A DNA stretch of 64,000 bases, from contig CAZPVH010000001.1 of NCBI GenBank assembly GCA_964589975.1, forward strand, positions 246,851 through 310,850, written 5' to 3'. Below, piece after piece: positions 2,104 to 62,240 of the stretch; positions within the stretch are counted from its first letter, which is position 1, and each line of letters starts with the position of its first letter. The stretch is from an uncultured Candidatus Saccharibacteria bacterium. Its GTDB lineage: Bacteria > Patescibacteriota > Minisyncoccia > Phycocordibacterales > CSBR16-119. A program made the position numbers and the translations under genes. The notes under the pieces are model-generated. The model ran no database searches. It was not told where the DNA came from and saw only the letters and a list, made by a program, of their open reading frames with translations.

Positions 2104-2715
2104 TTACCTGTTTTTGTTCGTCCAAACTCCTTTCCACCATTCTGATGGAGACATACTTAGGATATTCTTACCAATTTTCTTTGCCGACTCGGTCCGGAGC
2201 ATGAGAAGTTGCTTATTCTCGCTCTCATCATCGTTCTTGCCATACAGCCAAAGCGTGGCTTCTTTATTACCCTGATGTTCGTACTCCTTCAAAAGCAAGA
2301 CTTGGTCTAGTAGATCCGCATCCTTTGCCACAATGGCTTCCCTACTCTCGCGAGCATGGTACTCGGTCGTGATCTCTTTTAGATCCTGAAACGGTAATCC
2401 ACCGAGCTGATCCTCGACAATCTCGTCCTCAAAAACTTTCACGTACCGCTTATGAAGCCAGTTTTGGTCACCACTTCTAATCTCGCCGAGGTCATGCATG
2501 AGGCACATGGCGGAAACTTTATAGGGATCAACACCCTCCATTTTGGCCAAGAGGAAGCCCATGATCGCTACTCGGAAAGAGTGACTGGCGATATTATCGG
2601 CATTGTCATTCACCATGAGCGTTTGTCGGTGGGACCGTGGGATTCGACGGAGCGATCCGACTTCGTAAAGGAAGTCGACAATCTTTTCTTCATCAGTTTT
2701 ATTATTTGCTTCCAT
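2104..2715 (-). CDS. HD-domain phosphohydrolase (YfbR-like 5'-deoxynucleotidase family)
   Basis: H...HD motif (HSFRVA ... LMHDLGEIRSGD), about 200 aa. Confidence 0.7.
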   Translation of the reverse strand: MEANNKTDEEKIVDFLYEVGSLRRIPRSHRQTLMVNDNADNIASHSFRVAIMGFLLAKMEGVDPYKVSAMCLMHDLGEIRSGDQNWLHKRYVKVFEDEIVEDQLGGLPFQDLKEITTEYHARESREAIVAKDADLLDQVLLLKEYEHQGNKEATLWLYGKNDDESENKQLLMLRTESAKKIGKNILSMSPSEWWKGVWTNKNR

Positions 2716-2716
2716 A

Positions 2717-3028
2717 TTATTTTTCTCCTTTCAGAATAATTCTTTTTGTAAATCCGCCTTTATCATCATACTTTGCCTGTCGAACTTGTTCCAGGTTTGC
2801 GTATTCTGGCAATTTCTCTAAAGCTCTTATAACCTCTAAAAGATCCGCCAGCTCTTCTACACTCTTGTCTGCCAAGAATTCTCTCGATTCCTCGTCTACT
2901 TTTTTTATTAATTCTTCCTTGTATTCTTCTTCGGAAGCTATTCTTTCATTTTCATAAGAAATACCCTTCTCTCGCAATTGCTCGGGTATCTTATCTCTTA
3001 CCAATTTATTATAGGGTATCTTTTCCAT
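2717..3028 (-). CDS. MazG-like nucleotide pyrophosphohydrolase (small all-alpha NTP-PPase)
   Basis: 103 aa. EELADLLEVIRAL-type helix pair typical of MazG/YpjD-like housecleaning pyrophosphatases. Confidence 0.55.
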   Translation of the reverse strand: MEKIPYNKLVRDKIPEQLREKGISYENERIASEEEYKEELIKKVDEESREFLADKSVEELADLLEVIRALEKLPEYANLEQVRQAKYDDKGGFTKRIILKGEK

Positions 3029-3030
3029 AA

Positions 3031-3894
3031 TTATTCACTATGCCCTCCTTCAATTTTTCCTTTCATAGTACGAAGTTCTTTCAGCCATTTCTGCTCCTGT
3101 TCCTTATTCGGCGGCTTACCATGCCACTCATAATCATATTCGATTTCTTTTATGCCCTTGCCCGCAATGGTGTGCGCAATTATAACCGTCGGTTTTTCAA
3201 CTATCGCTTTCGCTTGCTCAACAGCATCAACAATTTCCTCCATGTTGTGCCCATTAATTTCCAAAACGTGCCAATTGAACGCGCGCCATTTGTCGGCAAG
3301 GGGCTCGAGCGGCATGATGTTTTCCGTCATGCCATTTATCTGAATATTGTTCCGATCAATCACAACCGTCAAGTTTGAGAGCTTATTCGCCCCGGCAAAC
3401 ATGATTCCTTCCCATGAGTTTCCAGCATCGAGCTCTCCGTCTGATATGAAGCAATAGACTCTGAATTTTTTACCATCCATTCTGGCCGAATAGGCATATC
3501 CGGAGGCCTGAGAAATACCAGATCCGAGAGGTCCAGAAGTGTTTTCCATACCTGGTAATTTCTCTCTTTCTGGGTGACCCTGTAAGCGCGATCCGAATTT
3601 CCTAAGGGTCGAGAGCTCTTTTAGGGGGAAATAGCCGGCATGGGCCATTGCACAGTATCTGACGGGCACAATATGGCCGTTTGAGAGGAATAATCGGTCC
3701 CGGTCAGGCCACTCCGGCTCAGCGGGCTTATGGTTCAAAATATGGAAATAAAAAGCCGTAAAAACGTCAGCCATGTCCAAGGGTCCCGCTGTGTGCCCAG
3801 ATCCAGCGTCTTCTAACATATCAATGATGCTCTGTCGAATATCATTCGCCTTCAGTTCGAGCATCTTTTCTTTTTCAGGGTTTAAACTAGACAT
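3031..3894 (-). CDS. tkt: transketolase, N-terminal (TPP-binding) subunit of a split transketolase
   Basis: 287 aa. GSGHTAGPLDMADVF and GHPE motifs of the TPP-binding half. Confidence 0.9.
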   Translation of the reverse strand: MSSLNPEKEKMLELKANDIRQSIIDMLEDAGSGHTAGPLDMADVFTAFYFHILNHKPAEPEWPDRDRLFLSNGHIVPVRYCAMAHAGYFPLKELSTLRKFGSRLQGHPEREKLPGMENTSGPLGSGISQASGYAYSARMDGKKFRVYCFISDGELDAGNSWEGIMFAGANKLSNLTVVIDRNNIQINGMTENIMPLEPLADKWRAFNWHVLEINGHNMEEIVDAVEQAKAIVEKPTVIIAHTIAGKGIKEIEYDYEWHGKPPNKEQEQKWLKELRTMKGKIEGGHSE

Positions 3895-4163
3895 TACGCA
3901 AAATCAGATAAAGCTAATAGCAGTGCAACAGCGATCATTGTTATATATGAGAGAGCAATCATTACTACAAAAACAGCATTCACCGGTATATTTTTATGTG
4001 CACGAGACATTGCAGATAAGGCCATGAACAGACTTATTACCCATGGAATCCAAAAATTCATTGCAAAATTTGTGTTTTTATTTAAAGCGACAATAAAAAC
4101 ACCTATCGCAAAAACTGCGGCAAATATTATTCTCAATTGAATACCTTGTTCTTTCCTATCCAT
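3894..4163 (-). CDS. small integral membrane protein
   Basis: 89 aa, two or three hydrophobic helices. Overlaps neighbours by 1 to 8 nt, which suggests operon coupling. Confidence 0.45.
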   Translation of the reverse strand: MDRKEQGIQLRIIFAAVFAIGVFIVALNKNTNFAMNFWIPWVISLFMALSAMSRAHKNIPVNAVFVVMIALSYITMIAVALLLALSDFA

Positions 4164-4833
4164 TTGAAATATTCTTAAAATCCTCTATCGAAACACTTGG
4201 ATTATTCGCGCCGAAGACCACTGATCCGGAAACTACTCGAGTTACGCCGATTTGGGCAAGTTCGTGAGCGGTATCGAGATTTATCCCTCCATCAACTGAA
4301 ATTATAGCATTCTGCTTGATCACCCTTACTTTATTTGCCTGATCCAAGACCCTTGGATCAAATGGCTGACCTTGATAACCAATGTTCTCTATTCCCATGA
4401 GCTGTACAAAGTCTGCTTTCGCGATAACTTCTTTCCAGTCATTCAGATTGTCAGTCGCCAGGAACGCAACTCCCCACTCAATGCCGAGACTTTCGATTTC
4501 TTTGGTGAAAAAGTCTTTGTCGTCAATAGAATTCGCGTGAACGATGAGCCTGCTAGCGCCGAGCTTCACGAATTTTCTCAAATCCGCCTCGGGTTCCCTA
4601 ACCATCAGGTCAAACTCGTATTTAATCTTGTCGGAATACGGCAGACGAATCTCGCCATCCATTAGTTCTCGTGCGCTCTGTTTGTCTTTTTCAAAAAATG
4701 GCCATGACTTCGATTCGACGAACTGACCGTCCATGAGGTCTAGCTGAACATAGTCCACGTATTCGAAAACTTTTTCCGCATGCTCGCGGATATCGTCAAA
4801 GCCTTTCGGCATAATGGCGGGGATGATTTCCAT
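4156..4833 (-). CDS. rpe: ribulose-phosphate 3-epimerase
   Basis: 225 aa. DLMDGQFV and VDGGIN motifs. Confidence 0.85.
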   Translation of the reverse strand: MEIIPAIMPKGFDDIREHAEKVFEYVDYVQLDLMDGQFVESKSWPFFEKDKQSARELMDGEIRLPYSDKIKYEFDLMVREPEADLRKFVKLGASRLIVHANSIDDKDFFTKEIESLGIEWGVAFLATDNLNDWKEVIAKADFVQLMGIENIGYQGQPFDPRVLDQANKVRVIKQNAIISVDGGINLDTAHELAQIGVTRVVSGSVVFGANNPSVSIEDFKNISNG

Positions 4834-4852
4834 CCTCTTATTTTACCACAGT

Positions 4853-5845
4853 CTAGAGACCTTGGTCGGCCAGGGCGTTTGACTCAAGTCTCTCTAGGAA
4901 TTGTATTTGGGCTTCTTTGAAATTATCTGGATTGCCGCCCCAAGCATGAAGCGCGTCGTTTTGAAGCGCTCGCGAATAAGAAAAAGCAATTTGCCATGGT
5001 AGTGGCTCCAGACGCGCAATCTCGCGGAGATTGTTCGTTGCCTCATCGGGAGTTTGTCCACCCGAGAGAAAGACGACGCCCGCGACATCCTTTGGAACCG
5101 TTTTTAGCAGGGTTTCAGTCGTAAATTTAGCGACCGTTTTCGCGTCCGCCCGAACCGAGGCTTCGCTTCCAGAGATAACCATACTGGTTTTTAGGATTAG
5201 GCCCTTTGGATCAACGAAATGCTTCGAGAGCTCTTCAAAAAGTATTTTTAGGACTTGTTCAATTATCATTTGCGCCTTTTCTATGGTGTGCGAACCATCA
5301 AGCATAACTTCGGGCTCAACCATTGGAACAATAGACTCGTCCTGGCAGGCCTTGGCATAACGCGCCAGAATTTTGGCATTCTCGCGAATACACTCATCTG
5401 ACGGGGTTGTGGCGGAGATCTTGAACGCGGCTCGCCATTTGGCGAAAGAGGCTCCCATGGATTTATATTCCTGAAGCCGGCCCGGCAGACCATTGAGGCC
5501 CTGGGTAATATTTTCTTCTGGAGATCCAGTCATAGGGACCAGCCCCTCATCAACTTTTATTCCAACCAAAATGCTTCTTCGTTCCAAAATCATTGAAAAA
5601 GGTATTCCAAGCTTGTCGGTTTGCCGAATGGTTTCGTCATAAAGTATGACTCCAGTAATAAAATGCTCCAGATCTGGCGTTGTCAGAAGTAATTCACGCC
5701 ATTCACGGCGCATTTCTTCAGTTTCAGGAATTCCGAGCGCGTGAAAACGCGCATTGCATGTATGAATACTTTCATCCGCGGCTAAAATTCCCTTTTTGGG
5801 TTCAACCAGACGATTAGCGATTGTATGAAGTTGCTGAATATTCAT
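4853..5845 (-). CDS. fba: fructose-bisphosphate aldolase, class I (eukaryotic-type)
   Basis: 330 aa. GILAADES signature and Schiff-base lysine region. Confidence 0.85.
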   Translation of the reverse strand: MNIQQLHTIANRLVEPKKGILAADESIHTCNARFHALGIPETEEMRREWRELLLTTPDLEHFITGVILYDETIRQTDKLGIPFSMILERRSILVGIKVDEGLVPMTGSPEENITQGLNGLPGRLQEYKSMGASFAKWRAAFKISATTPSDECIRENAKILARYAKACQDESIVPMVEPEVMLDGSHTIEKAQMIIEQVLKILFEELSKHFVDPKGLILKTSMVISGSEASVRADAKTVAKFTTETLLKTVPKDVAGVVFLSGGQTPDEATNNLREIARLEPLPWQIAFSYSRALQNDALHAWGGNPDNFKEAQIQFLERLESNALADQGL

Positions 5846-5881
5846 AATACGAGTGGCTAGTGACTAGCTTCTAGTGATTAG

Positions 5882-6325
5882 TTAATTATCGAGTTTGAGA
5901 ATACGACGTTTGTGCCTTTCATCGCCTGAGAATTTGGTTCCAAGAAATAGATCAACAGCATGTTTTGCTTCCTGTTCAGAAATAAACCTAGCGCCAAGAC
6001 TTAAAATATTTGCGTCGTTGTGCTCGCGCGCCAGACGAATTATGTCTTCCGGTCCGCCATAATAAACCGCGGCGCGAATGCCAAAAAGTCTGTTCGCCTC
6101 TATGGCTTCTCCTGTTCCTGATCCGCCAATAACAATTCCCATGGCGTTTGAGTCCGTTTCGGCCACACCTTCGGCAACGAGAGCGACAAAATCAGGATAA
6201 TCATCCGTCGGGTCCAGATGGTCCGGTCCTTTATCGACAACCTCGTGTCCCATAAGTTCAAGATGGCTCAGTAGAACCTTTTTCATTTCATAACCTGAAT
6301 GATCTGATGCAATATATATTTTCAT
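5882..6325 (-). CDS. rpiB: ribose-5-phosphate isomerase B
   Basis: 147 aa. MKIYIASDHSGYE N-terminus typical of RpiB/LacAB. Confidence 0.85.
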   Translation of the reverse strand: MKIYIASDHSGYEMKKVLLSHLELMGHEVVDKGPDHLDPTDDYPDFVALVAEGVAETDSNAMGIVIGGSGTGEAIEANRLFGIRAAVYYGGPEDIIRLAREHNDANILSLGARFISEQEAKHAVDLFLGTKFSGDERHKRRILKLDN

Positions 6326-6328
6326 AAT

Positions 6329-6760
6329 TTAAGCAGCATCTTTATATTCTTCGTCTTCAAATCCCTCCTTATCCAATTCAGCATTGGCATTCAAATGCTT
6401 TTCATTTGTTTCTTCTAATGTCTCAACTTCCGGCTCATCAAAAACGCCCTTTTCTTTCCAATCCGAATGGCGATCACTCAATTTCTCTTTTCTTTTTTCA
6501 TTACTAGTATTGAATGCCGTACGAAAATCTTTAAACTCATCACGAAACTGTACTTCGTGGCTAAATTTATGCTCATCTGTGCCCGGCGTCTCATAGCCCT
6601 CATCGTTCCGCGCATCCTGACGAGAAGCATAGAACTCTGGACTTTCTGAAGAGCGATCAAAATGTGCGACACCATCGATAGCCGGCTTTCCGCTATTTCT
6701 TCCTTCTACGTTTTTTTCAGTTGCTTTCCTTTTTCCCAAAAATCTTTCCAACATATACAA
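6329..6760 (-). CDS. acidic low-complexity hypothetical protein
   Basis: 143 aa, D/E-rich, predicted disordered. Confidence 0.4.
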   Translation of the reverse strand: MYMLERFLGKRKATEKNVEGRNSGKPAIDGVAHFDRSSESPEFYASRQDARNDEGYETPGTDEHKFSHEVQFRDEFKDFRTAFNTSNEKRKEKLSDRHSDWKEKGVFDEPEVETLEETNEKHLNANAELDKEGFEDEEYKDAA

Positions 6761-6768
6761 GAATTATT

Positions 6769-6981
6769 TTATAATCCCGCAGTCTTTAAAAAGTTTTCCA
6801 AAAACTTCTTCGTATACCCCATCTCGTTATCATACCACGCCATGACTTTCACAAGATTTCCTCCGACAACACGAGTCATTTCCAGGTCCACGATCGATGG
6901 AATAGTTACTCCAGCGATATCTAATGCAACATACATATTTTCATAACTGTGTTTGCCTAAGATACTCATTATACCCTTCAA
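6769..6981 (-). pseudogene. duplicated 3' fragment of gap (GAPDH C-terminal about 45 aa with a novel N-terminus)
   Basis: nt 6808-6922 are about 93% identical to nt 7298-7412 inside gap. The encoded VTIPSIVDLEMTRVVGGNLVKVMAWYDNEMGYTK matches the GAPDH C-terminus. Confidence 0.6.
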
Positions 6982-7243
6982 GATCGTCCTCGGTCACCGG
7001 AAGATTGCCCAGAAATGTCGGCAACTCATTTGGCCGCGCCCTTGGGACGTGGTAAATAGAGACTGGCAGATTTTGAATCTCTGACATCTTTGGCACACTC
7101 TTTACCGGTTTATAAAGCAACTCGTGCCATATTTCACCATCATCTCGCCTTTCAGTTTTGAGGATTTTTGAAATGATATACACCCCATCTGTTCCAGTAG
7201 AATACACAATATCTCCTTCGGTAAATGTATGCACTATGTCCAT
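6941..7243 (-). CDS. hypothetical protein (100 aa) inserted between gap and the gap fragment
   Basis: Complete ORF starting 9 nt after the gap stop. No recognisable motifs. Confidence 0.5.
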   Translation of the reverse strand: MDIVHTFTEGDIVYSTGTDGVYIISKILKTERRDDGEIWHELLYKPVKSVPKMSEIQNLPVSIYHVPRARPNELPTFLGNLPVTEDDLEGYNEYLRQTQL

Positions 7244-7252
7244 ATAACGTAT

Positions 7253-8308
7253 CTAATGTAAACCCTGCGCTGTTTTTATAACATGTTCAAGGAGCGTCTT
7301 CGTATACCCCATCTCGTTATCATACCATGCCATTACCTTGACCAGATTTCCTCCGACAACACGAGTCATTTCCAGGTCCACGATCGATGGAATAGTTACT
7401 CCGACTATATCTGAGGACACAATCGGCTCGTCTGTCGCCGTCAGAAGTCCAGCCCAGCGCTCTGATTTAGACGCTTTTACAAGGATAGAGTTTACTTCTT
7501 CCACAGTCGTCGGTTTTTTCGATATAAAAGTGATATCAACAAGCGACCCGACTGGAACCGGTACACGGATTGAGATGCCGTCGAAAAGTCCCGTAAGTGC
7601 GGGGAAGGCTTTTGTCACCGCGATAGCCGCGCCAGTCGAGCTTGGAACAATATTTTCCGCTGCCGCTCGGCCCTCGCGCAAATCCTTCTTTGATGGTCCG
7701 TCGACAAGCGCCTGAGAAGCGGTGTAGCCATGAACCGTAGAAAGAATTGCCTTCTCAATTCCCAGAGCTTCGTGTAAAACACCGATAAGCGGAGACGCTG
7801 CATTTGTAGTACAAGAAGCGTTCGATGTTATATCACATGTGCCGAATTTGTCTTCGTTCACGCCAAGAAGAATCGTTTCGCCATGGACCACCTGCCCTGA
7901 GCCTGTCGAAGGGTCACTGTCCTTTGCCGGAGCAGAAATCACAACTTTCTTCGCACCTTGATCAATATGGAATTTCGCTTTTTCGAAAGATGTGAAGAGT
8001 CCGGTGGATTCGACGACAACATCGATGTCAAGCTCCTTCCATGGAAGACCGCTTGGCTCCTTTGATGAAACGAATCTCGTCTCGATAGTCCTCGTACCAT
8101 CAGTAACAACGATGTTCCCCGTAGAAAAATCAACGGAGAAAGGCGCCCTACCATAAACAGTATCGTATTTAAGAAGATACGAGAGACTCTCGATACTGCC
8201 GAGATCGTTCACAGCCACGACTTCAATATCGTCGCGCTCCCAAGCCATCTTATAAAACGCTCGGCCGATTCGGCCAAAACCGTTTATTGCAACACGAACT
8301 TTTTTCAT
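7253..8308 (-). CDS. gap: glyceraldehyde-3-phosphate dehydrogenase
   Basis: 351 aa. INGFGRIGR NAD-binding motif and SNASCTTN active-site Cys motif. Confidence 0.95.
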   Translation of the reverse strand: MKKVRVAINGFGRIGRAFYKMAWERDDIEVVAVNDLGSIESLSYLLKYDTVYGRAPFSVDFSTGNIVVTDGTRTIETRFVSSKEPSGLPWKELDIDVVVESTGLFTSFEKAKFHIDQGAKKVVISAPAKDSDPSTGSGQVVHGETILLGVNEDKFGTCDITSNASCTTNAASPLIGVLHEALGIEKAILSTVHGYTASQALVDGPSKKDLREGRAAAENIVPSSTGAAIAVTKAFPALTGLFDGISIRVPVPVGSLVDITFISKKPTTVEEVNSILVKASKSERWAGLLTATDEPIVSSDIVGVTIPSIVDLEMTRVVGGNLVKVMAWYDNEMGYTKTLLEHVIKTAQGLH

Positions 8309-8355
8309 GAGAAAATTATACCACTTCTCTAAAAAATACTTGGTGGAAATCTAAA

Positions 8356-8751
8356 TTACTTCTGTCGGCAATCAGGATTGTTTGGCTGGTCAATTTCAGT
8401 AAAGTGCAAGTCAACTACTCTACCCGTCATTGCATTAATATAGACTTCAGGCACATTTCCTCTGACAGTATTAGTGGTTATGCCGAACCCGCCCTGAAAG
8501 GTATAGTTACCTCCAACTCTCCAAACAAGCTTGGTTTCAGGGTCAAAATCTTCACGTATAAGCGCTGAAGACAGAGACACTGTTTGGAAACGACTATCTT
8601 CTCCATCCCAACACAAGGTGATAATCGGTAAAGCAATTTCTTCAGCCTGAGCTTGAGAAATTGCTGGCTTTGTCTTGAGTAACAAAACATACCCCACCAC
8701 GAGAAGAGCTATGATAAATATAATACTGAATAGTAAGGACTTTTTCTTCAT
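8356..8751 (-). CDS. membrane-anchored hypothetical protein
   Basis: N-terminal TM helix and an extracytoplasmic domain with a Cys pair. Confidence 0.5.
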   Translation of the reverse strand: MKKKSLLFSIIFIIALLVVGYVLLLKTKPAISQAQAEEIALPIITLCWDGEDSRFQTVSLSSALIREDFDPETKLVWRVGGNYTFQGGFGITTNTVRGNVPEVYINAMTGRVVDLHFTEIDQPNNPDCRQK

Positions 8752-8752
8752 G

Positions 8753-10153
8753 TTATTTCAATAAATCTTTTAATATTTGTACTGCAAGCTGTGGATTGGC
8801 GCTTCCTTTAGACTCACGCATAAACTGCCCTACGAGGAACTGAATGGATTTCTCATTCCCGGCCTTGTATTCGGCGACGACTTTTGGATTTGCGGCAATA
8901 ATAGCTTCGGCACTCGCTTTTAGCTTTCCCTCATCGAGCTCTTGAATCAAACCGTGTTCCTTTGCATAACTTTCTGGATCGATATCACTTTTTACCATTT
9001 CGACAATTAGGTCTTTTGCACCACGAGAATTTATCTTATTATCAGCAAGCATTTTTATGATTGTTGCGAAGCTCTTGGCATTTGGAAACGCGAAATCACC
9101 TGTACGGAGACTCATCAGATCTGAAAGAATGTAGTTTGAGGCTTTCTTTATGGCGTCCCCTGCAAGCCCCTCAGCGACAACACTTTCGAAGAAATCAGAG
9201 AGCTCCTTGTCTGCCGCAAATATCGCTGCGTCTTCTTCTTTGATACCAAGCGTCTTCAGCCGCTCGCGTTTCGTGGCAGGCAATTCCGGAAGTTCCGCCC
9301 GCATTTTTTCGAGATCAAACATCTCATGCAGATACATCTTCGGAATATCCGGCTCTGGGAAATACCTATAGTCATGTGAATCTTCTTTCTTCCTTTGTGA
9401 GAAAGTGATCTGCTTGTTTTCATCCCATCCACGAGTTTCTTGGACGATTTCATTTCCCCTTCCTTCCTCCAAAAGTGCAATATGACGCTTAATTTCAAAT
9501 TCCGCCGCCTTTTCTACAGCTTTGAATGAGTTTATATTCTTAACCTCAACTTTCGTGCCAAATTTATCCGTATCAGAAACGGAGAGGTTCAACTCAACGC
9601 GCATCTCGCCCTTTTCCATGTTTGCGTCAGACACGCCAAGGGTTCGGAGAAGGAGTTGGAGTTCACGTCCAAAATCCCCAGCTTCTTTGGCTGAATGGAT
9701 GACCGGCTCGGTGACAAGCTCCATAAGTGGCACGCCCGCTCGATTGAAATCAATAAGAGAAAATTCTCCGCGGTCGTGCTTATTGTTCGCGGTGTCCTCC
9801 TCGAGATGTACTCGCGTGACTTTCACGCCATTGAGATCCCCGCCAGAAACAATCGGATATTTGTATTGAGATATTTGGTAACCCTTTGGAATATCGGGGT
9901 AGAAATAGTTCTTTCGGTCAAATTCAGTAAAGTTCGCGATGTTCGCGCCGATAGCCAGCCCAACCTTAACGACAGACTCGACAGCCTTCATATTCGGCAC
10001 AGGCAAAGTTCCCGGATGCGCCATGCAGACAGGACAAACATTTACATTCGGTTTTTCTTCGTCTGGATTGTTCCGGCACGCACAAAACATCTTGGTAGCT
10101 GTTTTCAGCTCCGCGTGAATTTCTAAACCAATTGTGACTTTATAATCTTTCAT
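8753..10153 (-). CDS. gatB: Asp-tRNA(Asn)/Glu-tRNA(Gln) amidotransferase subunit B
   Basis: GatB N-terminus MKDYKVTIGLEIHAEL and the Cys cluster. The track ORF extends to 10234, but the extra 27 aa are hydrophobic noise. The start was reset to the internal Met at 10153. Confidence 0.9.
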   Translation of the reverse strand: MKDYKVTIGLEIHAELKTATKMFCACRNNPDEEKPNVNVCPVCMAHPGTLPVPNMKAVESVVKVGLAIGANIANFTEFDRKNYFYPDIPKGYQISQYKYPIVSGGDLNGVKVTRVHLEEDTANNKHDRGEFSLIDFNRAGVPLMELVTEPVIHSAKEAGDFGRELQLLLRTLGVSDANMEKGEMRVELNLSVSDTDKFGTKVEVKNINSFKAVEKAAEFEIKRHIALLEEGRGNEIVQETRGWDENKQITFSQRKKEDSHDYRYFPEPDIPKMYLHEMFDLEKMRAELPELPATKRERLKTLGIKEEDAAIFAADKELSDFFESVVAEGLAGDAIKKASNYILSDLMSLRTGDFAFPNAKSFATIIKMLADNKINSRGAKDLIVEMVKSDIDPESYAKEHGLIQELDEGKLKASAEAIIAANPKVVAEYKAGNEKSIQFLVGQFMRESKGSANPQLAVQILKDLLK

Positions 10154-12699: not shown

Positions 12700-13036
12700 G
12701 ATCTTTTATGACACGATCAGCCAGCCAATTCAAAACTGAGACGATGAGCGAACCGAGGAATGCGGCCATAAACGTATCTACTGTCATACCCGGGATGAGA
12801 CCAGAAACAAACCAGAAGAACAGAGCGTTCAGGATAAGCAGAAAAAAACCGAGAGTAATTATGGTGATCGGAATTGTCAGAATTTTTACGACAGGCTTAA
12901 CCGCAACCTGGATAATGGTAAGCGCGGCTCCGGCGATAAGAATCGAAACCCAATCCGCCAGCTCAATTCCCGGTATCAGATAATCAGCGGCAATAACCGC
13001 GAGGGTTAGAAATATGAATCTAAAAAATAATTTCAT
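12692..13036 (-). CDS. DUF360/YvlD phage-holin-4-like membrane protein
   Basis: Four TM helices with the GxxxAxxxA pattern. The start was set to the Met at 13036, directly abutting an arm of the repeat element. Confidence 0.6.
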   Translation of the reverse strand: MKLFFRFIFLTLAVIAADYLIPGIELADWVSILIAGAALTIIQVAVKPVVKILTIPITIITLGFFLLILNALFFWFVSGLIPGMTVDTFMAAFLGSLIVSVLNWLADRVIKDRD

Positions 13037-13157
13037 CCCGTTAGAAGCAGGTCGCGGTCTTATCGCTACCAGCATATTTATCAATTATAATACTGTACTT
13101 TGAATTTAACATAATTTGATTTGTCATCCCGTGGCCGCGGCGTTTAACGGGATTCAT
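13034..13157. repeat. intergenic inverted-repeat element, copy A (left arm CATCCCGTTAGAAGCAGGTCGCGGTC, AT-rich core, degenerate/composite right arm)
   Basis: Left arm 13034-13059 abuts the ATG of the holin-like gene. Right arm 13125-13157 is a collapsed palindrome CATCCCGT..AACGGGATTCAT. Confidence 0.8.
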
Positions 13158-51516: not shown

Positions 51517-52053
51517 CTACAGACTCATTAATTTCTTGAACACTTCAAAAGTCGCGCGGGTATCGGCCAGAGCCGTATGCGACTTTTCGTTATGAATACC
51601 GAAATATTCGCAAAGGCGATGGAGATTGAATCGTTCGGCGCGTGGATCCTTGAAAAGCTTGGCGTAGGCCATGGAGATTGTGTCGAGTTTGGCATAAAAC
51701 ATTTCATTTTTCATACCAGTTTTCGTCAGAGCGCGTTCGATGAATGAGTAATCAAATGTTACATTCTGGGCAACCATGATCGCGCCGTCGGACTTTTCTG
51801 AAAATACTTTCATGGCCTCAGAAAGAGTGTTGGCAAAAATCCACTGAGCTTCATCATATCCATTCACTTTGAGCGCCGTCGGCTCCGCATTTTCTATATG
51901 CTCCGGTTTTATCTTCATCTCACGCTCTTCGATAACGGAAAAATTTCCCTTATCCTGTTTTACCAAGATGTAAGCGAGCTCAATGATCTCATGCTTCTCA
52001 GGATCAGTTCCCGTAGTCTCAACGTCGACAAAAATCAAATTCTCGTTTCTCAT
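51517..52053 (-). CDS. DEDDh 3'-5' exonuclease (DnaQ-like)
   Basis: FVDVETTG ... HTALADT motifs. Its ATG is fused to an arm of repeat copy C. Confidence 0.8.
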   Translation of the reverse strand: MRNENLIFVDVETTGTDPEKHEIIELAYILVKQDKGNFSVIEEREMKIKPEHIENAEPTALKVNGYDEAQWIFANTLSEAMKVFSEKSDGAIMVAQNVTFDYSFIERALTKTGMKNEMFYAKLDTISMAYAKLFKDPRAERFNLHRLCEYFGIHNEKSHTALADTRATFEVFKKLMSL

Positions 52054-52167
52054 CCCGTTAGAGGCAGATCGCGGTCTTGTCGCAATCTGCCTTAGTTATA
52101 TTTTTAATTTTATTTTGATTTGAATTCATAATTTTAAATTTTTACAGCGGTCGTGGCCTCTAACGGG
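52051..52167. repeat. intergenic inverted-repeat element, copy C
   Basis: Arms CATCCCGTTAGAGGCAGATCGCGGTC and GCGGTCGTGGCCTCTAACGGG. The core has TTCAAA-N18-TATAAC on the minus strand. Confidence 0.8.
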
Positions 52168-52174
52168 ACGCATA

Positions 52175-53176
52175 TTATTTGAGGTAAAGATTTATATTCT
52201 GCTTATGCTGCTCATACGTTACAGCGTAATGAACCTGACCAGAGGCGTCATGGAGGTAAAAGAAGTATTCTGACGACTTCGGATATATGGCAGCCTTGAT
52301 GGCGTCCACTCCCGGATTGCCGATAGGCGTCGGCGGTAATCCTCCCCGAGTATAAGTGTTATATTCGTGATCAAACGTGAGATCGGCCATGGTGAATTGC
52401 TTTGAAGATTTGCCATTAACATAGCGGAGCGTTGCGTCAACCTGAAGACGCATGTTTTTGTCGAGCCGTTTCCAGAGAATACCAGAGATCATCTGCTTCT
52501 CCACGTAATCATCATGCGCTTCGTCCTGGATTATGGATGCCATGGTGAGGATCTCATCCATGGTCTTCCCGGAGTCTTCAATATCTTTGGCGAGTCCTAC
52601 ACGGACGCGTTTTTCAAACGTGTCTTTCATCATATCGACGACATCTGGCGCGCCGGTGGATGGGAATAAGAGATACGTGTCAGGAAAAATATATCCTTCC
52701 AAGTCTTTTGTCAGGAATAGAAATTCTTCTTTGTTAAATTCCGGAAGCTTTTCATCCAAGATTTCCGCCATTTCCTTTGCCGACAATCCCTCGGGTAAAG
52801 TAATTGAAATCTTTTCAACTCCAAAGTCGCCAGTTGCCATTTTCTCGGCGACTTCCAAAATATTTTCCGGCTCCTCAAATAGATAATCTCCGGCAATCAC
52901 CGCCTTATCTCCGCCGAAAGCAATCACGAGCGTCTTGAAAAGCCCGGCTGAGCGAATAATTCCCTCTTCTTTGAACTTGGCGGCGATTGATCCAAGAGAT
53001 GCGCCGTTTTCAACAGTAATTATGCGCTGGGTTGGAAAGTTTGCCGGAGGAAAAACAAGCGTGATGATTAGCATCACAGCTACGCCGAGCGCAAGAAGCG
53101 CCGCTACCAGGCGCCACCAGTTTGAATTTTTAGAAGCGGATGTACCGAAGTCATCCTCGGTGTGAAAATCGTACAT
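52175..53176 (-). CDS. mltG: endolytic murein transglycosylase MltG (YceG-like)
   Basis: N-terminal TM and a YceG domain. Confidence 0.8.
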   Translation of the reverse strand: MYDFHTEDDFGTSASKNSNWWRLVAALLALGVAVMLIITLVFPPANFPTQRIITVENGASLGSIAAKFKEEGIIRSAGLFKTLVIAFGGDKAVIAGDYLFEEPENILEVAEKMATGDFGVEKISITLPEGLSAKEMAEILDEKLPEFNKEEFLFLTKDLEGYIFPDTYLLFPSTGAPDVVDMMKDTFEKRVRVGLAKDIEDSGKTMDEILTMASIIQDEAHDDYVEKQMISGILWKRLDKNMRLQVDATLRYVNGKSSKQFTMADLTFDHEYNTYTRGGLPPTPIGNPGVDAIKAAIYPKSSEYFFYLHDASGQVHYAVTYEQHKQNINLYLK

Positions 53177-56820: not shown

Positions 56821-57375
56821 TTATTTGCCCATTATGACACCCTCTTTTCCCCTGAAGATTTCTTCCAGCGAGAGATTGGCTTCATCGACTTTTGATTGCA
56901 GATTTTCCTTGGCCCGAATCTTTTCGTCCTCTGACATCTCGCCTTCCCTGGCCTGGCGATCAATCTCGCGGATCATGTTCTCGCGCTCTTTCTTGACGGA
57001 CACCCTGGCATCCTCGAGCTTCGCTTTTATAACCTTCACCAGTTTCTCGCGGTTCTCGGTCGTAAGCATTGGGAATATTACCCTGAGTCCCGTCTGGTCA
57101 ACGGCAACGGAAAGACCGAGGTCAGATTTCAAAATCTCTTTTTCAATTTCTTTCACCTGCTGCTTGTCCCACGGAGTCACTCGGAGAGTCTTCGGGTCCT
57201 CAATTGAAATAGACGCCACGTTTCGAAGTGGCTGCCTGGTGCCATAAGAGTCGACAGAGATTCCGTCCAGAACCATCGGGCTCGCAGCACCGGTATGAAG
57301 GGAAGAATATTCCTTCGTCAGCCAGTCTTTCGTCCCGCGAACGCTGTCTTCGAACGGTTTTAGATTGAATTGCAT
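56821..57375 (-). CDS. frr: ribosome recycling factor
   Basis: 184 aa with an RRF pattern. Its ATG is fused to an arm of repeat copy D. Confidence 0.9.
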   Translation of the reverse strand: MQFNLKPFEDSVRGTKDWLTKEYSSLHTGAASPMVLDGISVDSYGTRQPLRNVASISIEDPKTLRVTPWDKQQVKEIEKEILKSDLGLSVAVDQTGLRVIFPMLTTENREKLVKVIKAKLEDARVSVKKERENMIREIDRQAREGEMSEDEKIRAKENLQSKVDEANLSLEEIFRGKEGVIMGK

Positions 57376-57490
57376 CCCGTTAGAAGCAGGTCGCGGTCTT
57401 TACGCGATCTGCCATGATTAGATTTATAATTGTTACTTTTATTGTCATAAATTTGAATCCTTACTCACGCGACCGCGGCTTCTAACGGGA
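57373..57490. repeat. intergenic inverted-repeat element, copy D
   Basis: Arms CATCCCGTTAGAAGCAGGTCGCGGTC and GCGACCGCGGCTTCTAACGGG, with about 70 bp of AT-rich core. Confidence 0.85.
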
Positions 57491-58907: not shown

Positions 58908-59573
58908 CTATATTGTTACCGCCAAATGCTCCAAAAGTATCTTCGGGCTTGATCCTTGGTCGCCAATGTATTTCTTGGCCAGATATATATCCTCTACTTT
59001 CTTCTTCTCTGGCATCACCACTCCCCTAGAAATCTCCTTTTCAAGCTCCCCCAGAAACCGTAGTGACTTATCTTTCAAAAGCGGCTTTGATTCCATGTCA
59101 GTAAATTTTTTTATAAAGTCCAGGCGCTCCTTTATGCTTCCAGCCAGGAATTTCTTCGCGTCTTTCTTTAGTTCATCTTCGGCGGCAAACTCACCTATTG
59201 TCGCCATAAGCCGCGAGCGAAGCGTTGGGAAAAGTTTCGTCGCGTCCGGCATGAGGAGGAAAAATGTAACTCCGGGTCGAGGCTCTTCGAAAGCTTTGAG
59301 AAGCGCGTTTTGCGCCGGATATGAGAAAGCGAGAGTCTTTAGGATAATGAATCTCTTTTTAGAATTTATATTCATCGCCTCGGACTCGAAGTCTTTGATC
59401 TCGCGGACATGGTCAATGAGGAGATTCTCATAATCCTTCTCAAAAATGTCAGCATTCCCTGTTGTGAGGTAGCCGAGCTCGTCCAGGGACTTCGCGAGTT
59501 CTTTGTAAGACAAATGAATATCACCCTCTATTAGATACGCATGGTGATTTATTCCGTTCTTTAAGATATTCAT
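58908..59573 (-). CDS. holB: DNA polymerase III delta' subunit-like clamp-loader protein
   Basis: AQNALLKAFEEP motif. Start reset to MNILKNG at 59573, fused to an arm of repeat copy E. Confidence 0.7.
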   Translation of the reverse strand: MNILKNGINHHAYLIEGDIHLSYKELAKSLDELGYLTTGNADIFEKDYENLLIDHVREIKDFESEAMNINSKKRFIILKTLAFSYPAQNALLKAFEEPRPGVTFFLLMPDATKLFPTLRSRLMATIGEFAAEDELKKDAKKFLAGSIKERLDFIKKFTDMESKPLLKDKSLRFLGELEKEISRGVVMPEKKKVEDIYLAKKYIGDQGSSPKILLEHLAVTI

Positions 59574-59688
59574 CCCGTTAGAAGCAGGTCGCGGTCGTTC
59601 CGCAATCTCCTTGGCCATAATTTATAAACTTTATATATATTTTCATATTCGGTTTTTTAAATAAATCGCGACCGCGGCTTCTAACGGG
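59571..59688. repeat. intergenic inverted-repeat element, copy E
   Basis: Arms CATCCCGTTAGAAGCAGGTCGCGGTC and CGCGACCGCGGCTTCTAACGGG. Confidence 0.85.
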
Positions 59689-61011: not shown

Positions 61012-61017
61012 GTACAA

Positions 61018-61058
61018 CCCCGCCCGAAAGCCGCCCGGCTTTCGGGCGGTTTTTCTTT
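61018..61058 (+). terminator. rho-independent terminator T1
   Basis: CGCCCGAAAG-CCGCCCGG-CTTTCGGGCG followed by a T-run. Near-identical to T3 at 62200-62240. Confidence 0.75.
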
Positions 61059-61089
61059 TATTGACTTTAGACAGAATATTATGTAATGT

Positions 61090-62191: not shown

Positions 62192-62199
62192 CCGATAAC

Positions 62200-62240
62200 A
62201 CCACCCGAAAGCCGCCCGGCCTTCGGGTGGTTTTTCTTTT
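62200..62240 (+). terminator. rho-independent terminator T3
   Basis: CACCCGAAAG-CCGCCCGG-CCTTCGGGTG followed by a T-run. Confidence 0.75.

Follow-up and report, generated by a model that had tools for sequence, protein, structure and literature searches.

The duplicated 3' end of gap in an uncultivated saccharibacterium: a probable recombination scar, still polymorphic between near-identical strains

Described systems with a duplicated gene end

In Campbell-type integration, as in integration from a repeat-flanked donor or the reverse of either, a homologous segment lies directly duplicated around the insert and a sibling has one hybrid copy of that segment. We describe such an arrangement in a 64,000-nucleotide stretch of DNA from an uncultured Candidatus Saccharibacteria bacterium (contig CAZPVH010000001.1; the whole analysed stretch is referred to as the window), where the 3' end of gap, the gene encoding GAPDH, recurs downstream of the gene and the two copies bracket a 100-codon open reading frame (ORF), ORF100. 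The likeness comprises (i) direct repeats that flank the insert; (ii) a sibling sequence, the Logan contig L089, with a single hybrid copy between identical flanks; and (iii) an exchange point that falls in the longest perfectly identical stretch, which at 59 nt is long enough for RecA. The locus differs from the textbook case in that an essential glycolytic gene supplies the homologous segment, namely its 3' end from another allele, so that the last 30 gap codons are swapped, and in that the 'vector' is just 431 nt long and holds one ORF, the form of the donor being one that we infer.

In the Rhs and CdiA polymorphic-toxin loci, recombination installs a new 3' end together with a small ORF and displaces the old 3' end and its ORF downstream, and the displaced C-terminal 'orphan' modules can build arrays. 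The likeness to these loci is one of geometry only: a tail and a small ORF are displaced in the window, and three displaced tails form an array in a related locus (L078). Here the gene encodes GAPDH and not a toxin, toxin/immunity logic is missing and the tails are functionally equivalent alleles.

Homology-facilitated illegitimate recombination (HFIR), described for naturally transformable bacteria (de Vries and Wackernagel 2002, as cited in PMC8116780), resembles the present case in pairing a homologous anchor with a 6-nt microhomology join, here TCAGAT, on the opposite side, with related but diverged DNAs as partners; the illegitimate joint in the window (TTAGAT) links rpiB and gap, two otherwise unrelated sequences. 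In the Vibrio cholerae recA island (PMC4405046), a housekeeping-gene target is restored by the island's own diverged copy. The window shares with this island and with tRNA-gene islands a target kept intact by a diverged replacement and a partial duplicate at the far end; those islands are kilobases long and have integrases, whereas no recombinase or integrase is encoded in the unit described here, which holds ORF100 only, or in the neighbours gatB, gap, rpiB, fba and rpe, and the breakpoints are those expected of a RecA-type exchange plus a microhomology join. The feature adds to a known process an example of unusually good resolution; it does not represent a new kind of element.

Two gap tails and the empty site

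A repeat search returned a direct repeat of 154 nt (6778-6931 versus 7268-7421, 85% identity without gaps, spacing 490 nt), the sole repeat of its kind within the window. A first-pass annotation, made from the sequence, had described it as the last 115 bp or so of gap, repeated at about 93% identity (6808-6922 and 7298-7412). That core is borne out, with 8 differences over 115 nt and a similarity well clear of background, but the limit is not: when one 3-nt gap is allowed, the homology reaches both stop codons. Over tail codons 4-41 the two copies are 93% identical, compared with 72-81% between either copy and the gap tails of the closest relatives; being closer to each other than to any relative's tail, they are true paralogs and do not merely reflect conservation of a protein motif.

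The way in which the copies differ indicates that neither is a decaying fragment. Over tail codons 7-41 there are five differences, all of them at synonymous third positions (P ~7e-4 under neutrality, 23% of possible changes being synonymous), so both tails must have evolved inside working gap genes. Moreover, the differences are clustered in codons 26-31 and 42-54, with perfect blocks of 59 and 31 nt between them, the former being identical base for base in both copies. Read from the sequence, this pattern is a mosaic, as expected of two recombining alleles rather than of uniform decay.

The contig L089 (6985 nt), found by exact-sequence look-up of ORF143, an ORF located between the second gap tail and rpiB, provides the state without the insert. 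Its gene order is gatB-ORF131-gap(349 aa)-ORF143-rpiB-fba-rpe, without ORF100. Positions 1-2724 of L089 match window 10067-7344 and positions 2666-6249 match window 6912-3329 (3584 nt), both at 100% identity, so that the second tail of the window is identical to L089 from 6912 downward. Its single gap tail is a hybrid that has the edge of the first window copy (GATATAGTC), then the 59-nt block, then the sequence of the second copy to the stop (KKFLENFLKTAGL). The window is therefore L089 plus exactly 490 nt, namely 431 unique nucleotides (7343-6913) and one copy of the 59-nt block, and since this block is common to both copies the breakpoint may lie anywhere inside it. The geometry that the first-pass annotation had proposed, an insert between duplicated 3' ends of gap, is thus matched by an 'empty' site with one gap tail. 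Coordinates are collected in Table 1; all features lie on the minus strand, where the order is gatB, ORF131, gap, ORF100, ORF70, ORF143, rpiB, the class I aldolase gene (fba) and rpe.

Table 1. Features of the gap-rpiB interval in the window
Feature	Coordinates (nt)	Strand	Evidence or remark
gatB	10234-8753	minus	
ORF131, 131 aa	between gatB and gap	minus	
gap (GAPDH), 351 aa	7253-8308	minus	Pfam Gp_dh_N 1.5e-32, Gp_dh_C 1.2e-51
Repeat copy 1 (gap tail)	7253-7414	minus	Sequence comparison with L089
Copy 1, microhomology TCAGAT	7414-7409	minus	
Copy 1, edge ATAGTC	7408-7403	minus	
Copy 1, 59-nt block	7402-7344	minus	Identical to 6912-6854
Copy 1, patch with five synonymous differences	7343-7328	minus	
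Copy 1, 31-nt identity	7327-7297	minus	
Copy 1, diverged end	7296-7253	minus	
ORF100, 100 aa	6941-7243	minus	Starts 9 nt past the gap stop
rpiB 5' remnant, 26 nt	6919-6944	minus	ATGAAAATATGTATGTTGCATTAGAT
Repeat copy 2 (displaced gap tail)	6769-6924	minus	Sequence comparison with L089
Copy 2, junction TTAGAT	6924-6919	minus	
Copy 2, edge ATCGCT	6918-6913	minus	
Copy 2, 59-nt block	6912-6854	minus	Identical to 7402-7344
Copy 2, end (type 2 tail)	stop 6771-6769	minus	Finishes TKKFLENFLKTAGL, then stop
ORF70	6769-6981	minus	ORF list; Pfam Gp_dh_C tail match only
490-nt unit	6913-7402	minus	In the window, not in L089; comparison with L089
ORF143	6329-6760	minus	141 aa if begun at ATG 6754
rpiB, intact	5882-6325	minus	Pfam LacAB_rpiB 5.6e-41

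The comparison also changes the status of the two tails. Up to 7344 the gap gene of the window is that of L089, and its last 30 codons (7343-7253) differ. This 'type 1' tail, which ends in TKTLLEHVIKTAQGLH before the stop, is more typical of the clade than the 'type 2' tail of L089 (nhmmer score 96.9 versus 76.4). To judge by its sequence, the window gene is a chimera of two tail alleles with the last 30 codons swapped. The C-terminus of ORF70, the frame that runs through the second tail, had been taken for one that diverged after the duplication; it is base for base the only gap tail of L089, hence part of a working enzyme encoded by another allele, and post-duplication decay is ruled out. 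Within the type 2 tail, divergence is strongest at 6806-6783 (minus strand, AAGTTTTTGGAAAACTTTTTAAAG, encoding KKFLENFLK); this patch is nearly palindromic and, to judge by its sequence, might fold into an AU-rich hairpin of 7 bp with U's behind it. It went unflagged in the terminator scan.

Altogether, the feature is very probably the scar of a recombination, one for which near-identical strains are still polymorphic. We likewise consider it highly probable that it reflects an insertion or deletion at strain level, in which gap tails recombined by homology and which was added to one older join at a microhomology. For an uncultivated, ultra-small bacterium it is rare that both end states of the gain or loss of a small gene can be read base by base, with every junction explicable.

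The rpiB remnant, ORF100 and the order of events

The older join is recorded immediately downstream of ORF100, at a place that the first-pass annotation overlooked although it explains how the unit arose. Here lies a remnant of the start of rpiB (6944-6919), which differs from the start of the intact gene (6325-6302, ATGAAAATATATATTGCATCAGAT) by a 2-nt insertion and two substitutions and now translates as MKICMLH before a stop. Its ATG overlaps the ORF100 stop (ATGA) in the same way as does the real rpiB in relatives. The remnant ends with TTAGAT, directly after which the gap-tail homology starts. In the parental sites, the sequence TCAGAT is found in rpiB codons 6-9 (GCA-TCAGAT-CAT, TCA GAT being codons 7-8) and in gap (TCC-TCAGAT-ATA); its presence in both, and that of TTAGAT at the junction, indicate that the two were joined at a microhomology of 6 nt. 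But for the 2-nt insertion, which came later, this join would have fused rpiB codons 1-8 in frame to the last 53 gap codons. Displaced tails of other species have no rpiB-start remnant beside them; the window alone has one.

Given an rpiB remnant behind ORF100, the ORF100 segment was presumably cut out of a locus of the ORF100-rpiB type, and such loci exist. ORF100 has homologs in only five clusters, 63-73% identical and all exactly 100 aa long, and it adjoins rpiB upstream, with the 4-nt ATGA stop/start overlap, in 11 loci of relatives, which are every ORF100-bearing contig among them: L081 (gap-ORF100-rpiB), L082-L087 (gap-ORF125-ORF100-rpiB), L091 (gap-barstar-ORF100-rpiB) and L088, L090 and L092 (ORF100-rpiB). 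ORF100 is therefore native to the gap-rpiB interval, which rules it out as a foreign or mobile gene. The description of a complete 100-aa ORF beginning 9 nt past the gap stop was right, that of an ORF unrelated to the locus was not, and the comparison with relatives, called for at the time, found a second gap tail or a 70-aa ORF in no close relative.

Structurally, ORF100 is a small conserved protein, confidently modelled by AlphaFold2 as an SH3-like beta-barrel with a C-terminal helix and non-enzymatic in appearance; no family match was obtained in Pfam, NCBIfam, PADLOC or PHROGs, and CcdB/MazF-like toxins were considered as a tentative comparison. The domain (~95 aa), for which there is no Pfam model, is also the N-terminal domain of TPR-repeat proteins of ~227-417 aa. 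It is an undescribed domain family, with 116 representative clusters found (members P0011, P0012, P0017, P0019, P0021, P0022, P0030, P0065 and P0088).

These data can be arranged in two steps. In the first, in a genome of the gap-ORF100-rpiB type, rpiB codon 8 would have been joined to gap codon -54 at TCAGAT, yielding a unit made of the gap tail, ORF100 and the first 24 nt of rpiB, with gap-tail sequence at both of its ends, in the form of a tandem duplication or of an excised circle. In the second, of which the end states are observed, the unit and a chromosome of the gap(type 2)-ORF143-rpiB type would have been combined by a RecA-type exchange in the 59-nt block, the unit either going in (Campbell-type, or by two crossovers with a donor flanked by repeats) or being lost through deletion from one repeat to the other. 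The end states are gap(type 1)-ORF100-rpiB'-gap tail(type 2)-ORF143-rpiB in the window, where rpiB' denotes the remnant, and gap(type 2)-ORF143-rpiB in L089. As an outcome, the last 30 codons of gap would have been swapped, and ORF100 would now sit within the gap-rpiB operon.

Several points weigh against this account. The donor haplotype, that is, a type 1 tail, ORF100 and intact rpiB at near identity, did not turn up: the exact 31-mer at the ORF100/rpiB' junction had 0 matches in the Joint Genome Institute (JGI) metagenomes, and a scan with the ORF100 profile returned a single, irrelevant locus. The edge of the second copy (ATCGCT) differs from that of the first (ATAGTC) at 3 of 6 positions, which, like the 2-nt insertion in the rpiB remnant, calls for a donor that had already diverged or for mutation close to the joint. 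For the route of DNA entry, natural competence, demonstrated in Patescibacteria, specifically in Saccharibacteria (PMC10633639), would be a candidate. Finally, L089 is a k-mer assembly and every 31-mer of its hybrid tail also occurs in the window arrangement, so that an assembler skipping the 490-nt loop could in principle yield L089.

This last point bears on the possibility that co-existing strains were merged in the assembly of one arrangement or the other. Both indeed come from metagenome assemblies, and the 59-nt block exceeds k=31; we nevertheless regard an artefact as very unlikely, for reasons that concern both sequences. On the side of the window, the junction between the rpiB remnant and the gap tail shares just 5-6 nt, far under the k of any assembler, and the remnant is frameshifted, hence not the rpiB of a second strain. 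On the side of L089, the contig runs unbroken through a node at which a branch would otherwise be expected, which argues for its being real. In a collection of 15 billion proteins, moreover, the 349-aa gap product was found only in Logan and ORF143 in both NCBI and Logan, and ORF100 and the 351-aa gap product only in the NCBI genome; as neither ORF100 nor the type 1 tail occurs among the Logan proteins, L089 is arguably a real haplotype rather than a skipped loop. Exact look-ups in the contig index likewise gave no record of ORF100 or of the 351-aa gap product.

Whether the unit was gained or lost is close to evenly balanced, and segment-wise identity to relatives provides no polarity: ORF100 is 76% identical to its L081 counterpart at the DNA level, the flanking gap and rpiB are 77-78% identical, and no segment stands out. 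L089 may well represent the recipient state, which the 490-nt unit, carried by a circular or repeat-flanked donor, would have entered through one exchange in the 59-nt block of the gap tail. Such an exchange yields the window exactly, down to the donor edge ATCGCT in the second copy and the resident edge ATAGTC in the first, whereas a one-step illegitimate join in an L089-like recipient, as in HFIR, would leave two identical edges; HFIR becomes compatible with the mismatch if the recipient was an unseen allele, R0, in which gap would have the ATCGCT edge and the type 2 tail. The price of a gain is a pre-formed junction in an unseen donor, and the identity values just given show no mark of recent import of ORF100.

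It is also possible, though we would not call it probable, that the window arrangement is the older one and that L089 arose from it by deletion between the two 59-nt blocks. A deletion between direct repeats is easy and yields exactly the hybrid tail of L089, and of the two ORFs it is ORF100 that is the ancestral rpiB neighbor of the clade, ORF143 being an orphan. The older arrangement would itself have come from a sister-strain fragment, [type 2 tail-ORF143-rpiB], joined by HFIR at rpiB codon 8 of a gap-ORF100-rpiB chromosome. A loss thus needs two events in this lineage; furthermore, the 100% identity of the flanks implies that all of it is very recent, yet the rpiB remnant already has an indel and two substitutions.

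A third scenario, in which the segment from the gap tail through ORF100 to the rpiB start was duplicated in tandem in situ, the second unit then diverging into ORF143 and the second tail decaying, is largely refuted and most improbable. An rpiB start fused to a gap tail at a microhomology is the junction geometry that it predicts, and there is a weak likeness between residues 4-22 of ORF143 (LERFLGKRKATEKNVEGRN; 6751-6695) and a conserved motif at residues 74-92 of ORF100 (LPTFLGNLPVTEDDLEGYN; 7024-6968), with 9 of 19 positions identical (shuffle P 0.005-0.009). This likeness is probably due to chance, as the hidden Markov model (HMM) of the ORF100 family lends it no support (about -1 bit on ORF143), and at the DNA level the ORF143 region scores no better against ORF100 than do shuffled sequences (Smith-Waterman score 12 versus 11.0 +/- 1.5). 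ORF143 is thus ruled out as a diverged ORF100 copy, and with it a simple tandem duplication, the units not being homologous along their whole length. In addition, the spacers differ in length (443 versus 308 nt), the five core differences are all synonymous and the supposedly decayed tail is the one that L089 uses. ORF143 itself is an acidic orphan that follows the type 2 gap tail in the window and in L089 alike, with no homolog by similarity search and no match in Pfam, NCBIfam, PADLOC or PHROGs.

ORF70 is a composite, in which the last part of ORF100, in another frame, is followed by the 26-nt rpiB remnant and a 163-nt gap tail. The first-pass annotation had credited this frame with 70 codons and a methionine of its own; the length holds for a TTG start, while the first ATG (6969) would yield 66 aa. 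In Pfam, residues 14-50 align with the last 37 positions of Gp_dh_C (E 1.5e-4, below the curated cut-off). A functional small protein mimicking the GAPDH C-terminus can be imagined, as the frame stays open for 70 codons, a Shine-Dalgarno-like GAAGGG lies 4 nt ahead of ATG 6969 and displaced tails elsewhere often remain in frame. We nonetheless give this idea very little credence: ORF70 is absent from L089 and from every close relative examined, its gap-derived part equals the L089 tail and has left no time for selection to show, its upstream 16 codons are ORF100 read out of frame, and the promoter-like sites are at chance (5 found, 5.6 expected), as is the whole promoter and terminator scan of 5800-8800. 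Its absence from all close relatives marks ORF70 as a remnant and not a conserved gene, so that of the 'GAPDH C-terminal fragment gene' proposed earlier the fragment stays and the gene goes; going by the sequence, it is best read as no gene, an open frame left over as a by-product and not selected. Where annotation of these genomes yields a 'GAPDH C-terminal fragment' ORF after gap, it should be taken for a scar, not a gene.

The gap-rpiB interval in related species and other repeats of the window

The gap protein assigns the organism to the Patescibacteria (Paceibacteria/Nomurabacteria-like). The gap-rpiB interval is a hotspot for accessory genes. Among 80 species representatives, the best of which have 83-89% GAPDH identity, the distance from gap to rpiB ranges from 10 nt (L001) to ~4.9 kb (L077). 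A gap-tail profile detected extra displaced gap tails between the two genes in 12 of these 80 loci (L078, L008, L009, L013, L028, L042, L047, L052, L058, L061, L062 and L067), ten of them with at least one match at E<1e-6. The displaced fragments are ~65-80 nt long (WYDNEMGYT..LVEHVIKTG..), and most begin near TGGTAT, in the WYDNE codons. They are often nearer to another genome's tail than to the current tail of their own genome, a comparison biased by the choice of the best of 85.

In L078 (6026-7840), small membrane ORFs alternate with tails in the order gap, ORF76, tail, ORF116, tail, ORF107, tail, ORF182, rpiB, ORF182 being Fic-like by virtue of an HPFxxGNGR motif read in its translation. 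L042 (5950-6850) and L029 (5946-6267) form a second before/after pair: L042 has a 57-aa membrane ORF and a new tail ahead of the old one, which is still contiguous with a homolog of ORF73 of L029, and the same ORF57-plus-fragment cassette is present in L009. As regards the cargo, a barstar-family gene (PF01337, 111 aa) occupies L091 1670-2005, between gap and ORF100, with spacers of 1 nt and 0 nt; the hotspot collects immunity-type and toxin-type small genes.

Duplication of the 3' end of a target around an insert is the classic attL/attR geometry, and together with the displaced tails of 12 of 80 species, many starting at the same TGGTAT, it could evoke a site-specific mobile cassette of the integrase or integron kind, with the 3' end of gap as its target and a tail copy of its own. 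This is a remote prospect, for the unit encodes ORF100 alone and has no inverted repeats, and its left junction is an rpiB fragment attached through a 6-nt microhomology instead of a shared att arm. When the junctions were examined for an att core, those of the window proved to be the 59-nt identity block and the 6-nt microhomology, with a breakpoint ~80 nt away from that of the other species, whose fragments often start that much later, at TGGTAT. A transposon or insertion sequence was also rejected: there are 0 inverted-repeat pairs in 5800-8400, the duplication (154-163 nt) is too long for a target-site duplication and no transposase is encoded.

Recombination between gap tails might, by contrast with a dedicated integrase, account for both the window and its relatives. 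We tentatively propose that the final 70-160 nt of gap, which are conserved, may serve as a portable handle for recombination in Paceibacteria. A small gene bracketed by two gap tails could then be a cassette that RecA alone might insert or delete in genomes sharing the tail, although this too is speculative. On this doubtful but coherent scheme, integrase-free arrays would build up between gap and rpiB, and the window would be the youngest case, still segregating. Such a model would explain the displaced tails of the 12 loci, the triple of L078, the recurrent TGGTAT boundary and the foreign-like tails. It would also, conceivably, have each displaced tail take its left boundary from the donor and its right part from the resident, which is the composition of the second copy in the window if the unit was gained.

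What the locus implies is that, in these reduced genomes, a core operon of glycolysis and the pentose-phosphate pathway gains and loses accessory genes through ordinary homologous exchange within a conserved gene tail, with an occasional microhomology join, the end of an essential enzyme being swapped between alleles as a side effect. The gap-rpiB interval is accordingly a place to seek strain-specific cargo, of which the barstar, the Fic-like ORF and the small membrane ORFs of relatives are examples.

Two other sets of repeats were noted elsewhere in the window. A 59-nt family has four copies (13034-13092, 52051-52109, 57373-57431 and 59571-59629; 71-100% identical), for which Rfam gave no family at the gathering threshold. 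The ORF at 51517-52053 has its start codon (52053, minus strand) directly against the copy at 52051, which reads, on that strand, as an AT-rich region, a hairpin GGCAGATTGCGACAAGACCGCGATCTGCC and then TCTAACGGGATG; a similar CCTCTAACGGGAC is present at ~52158-52170, near the minus-strand ORF at 52175-53176. By its sequence, the family has the look of a common 5' leader or of a motif for initiating translation. The second set consists of two GC-rich hairpins, 1181 nt apart (61016-61059 and 62197-62240), which are 91% identical, are each followed by a T-run (AACCCCGCCCGAAAGCCGCCCGGCTTTCGGGCGGTTTTTC) and look like duplicated intrinsic terminators.

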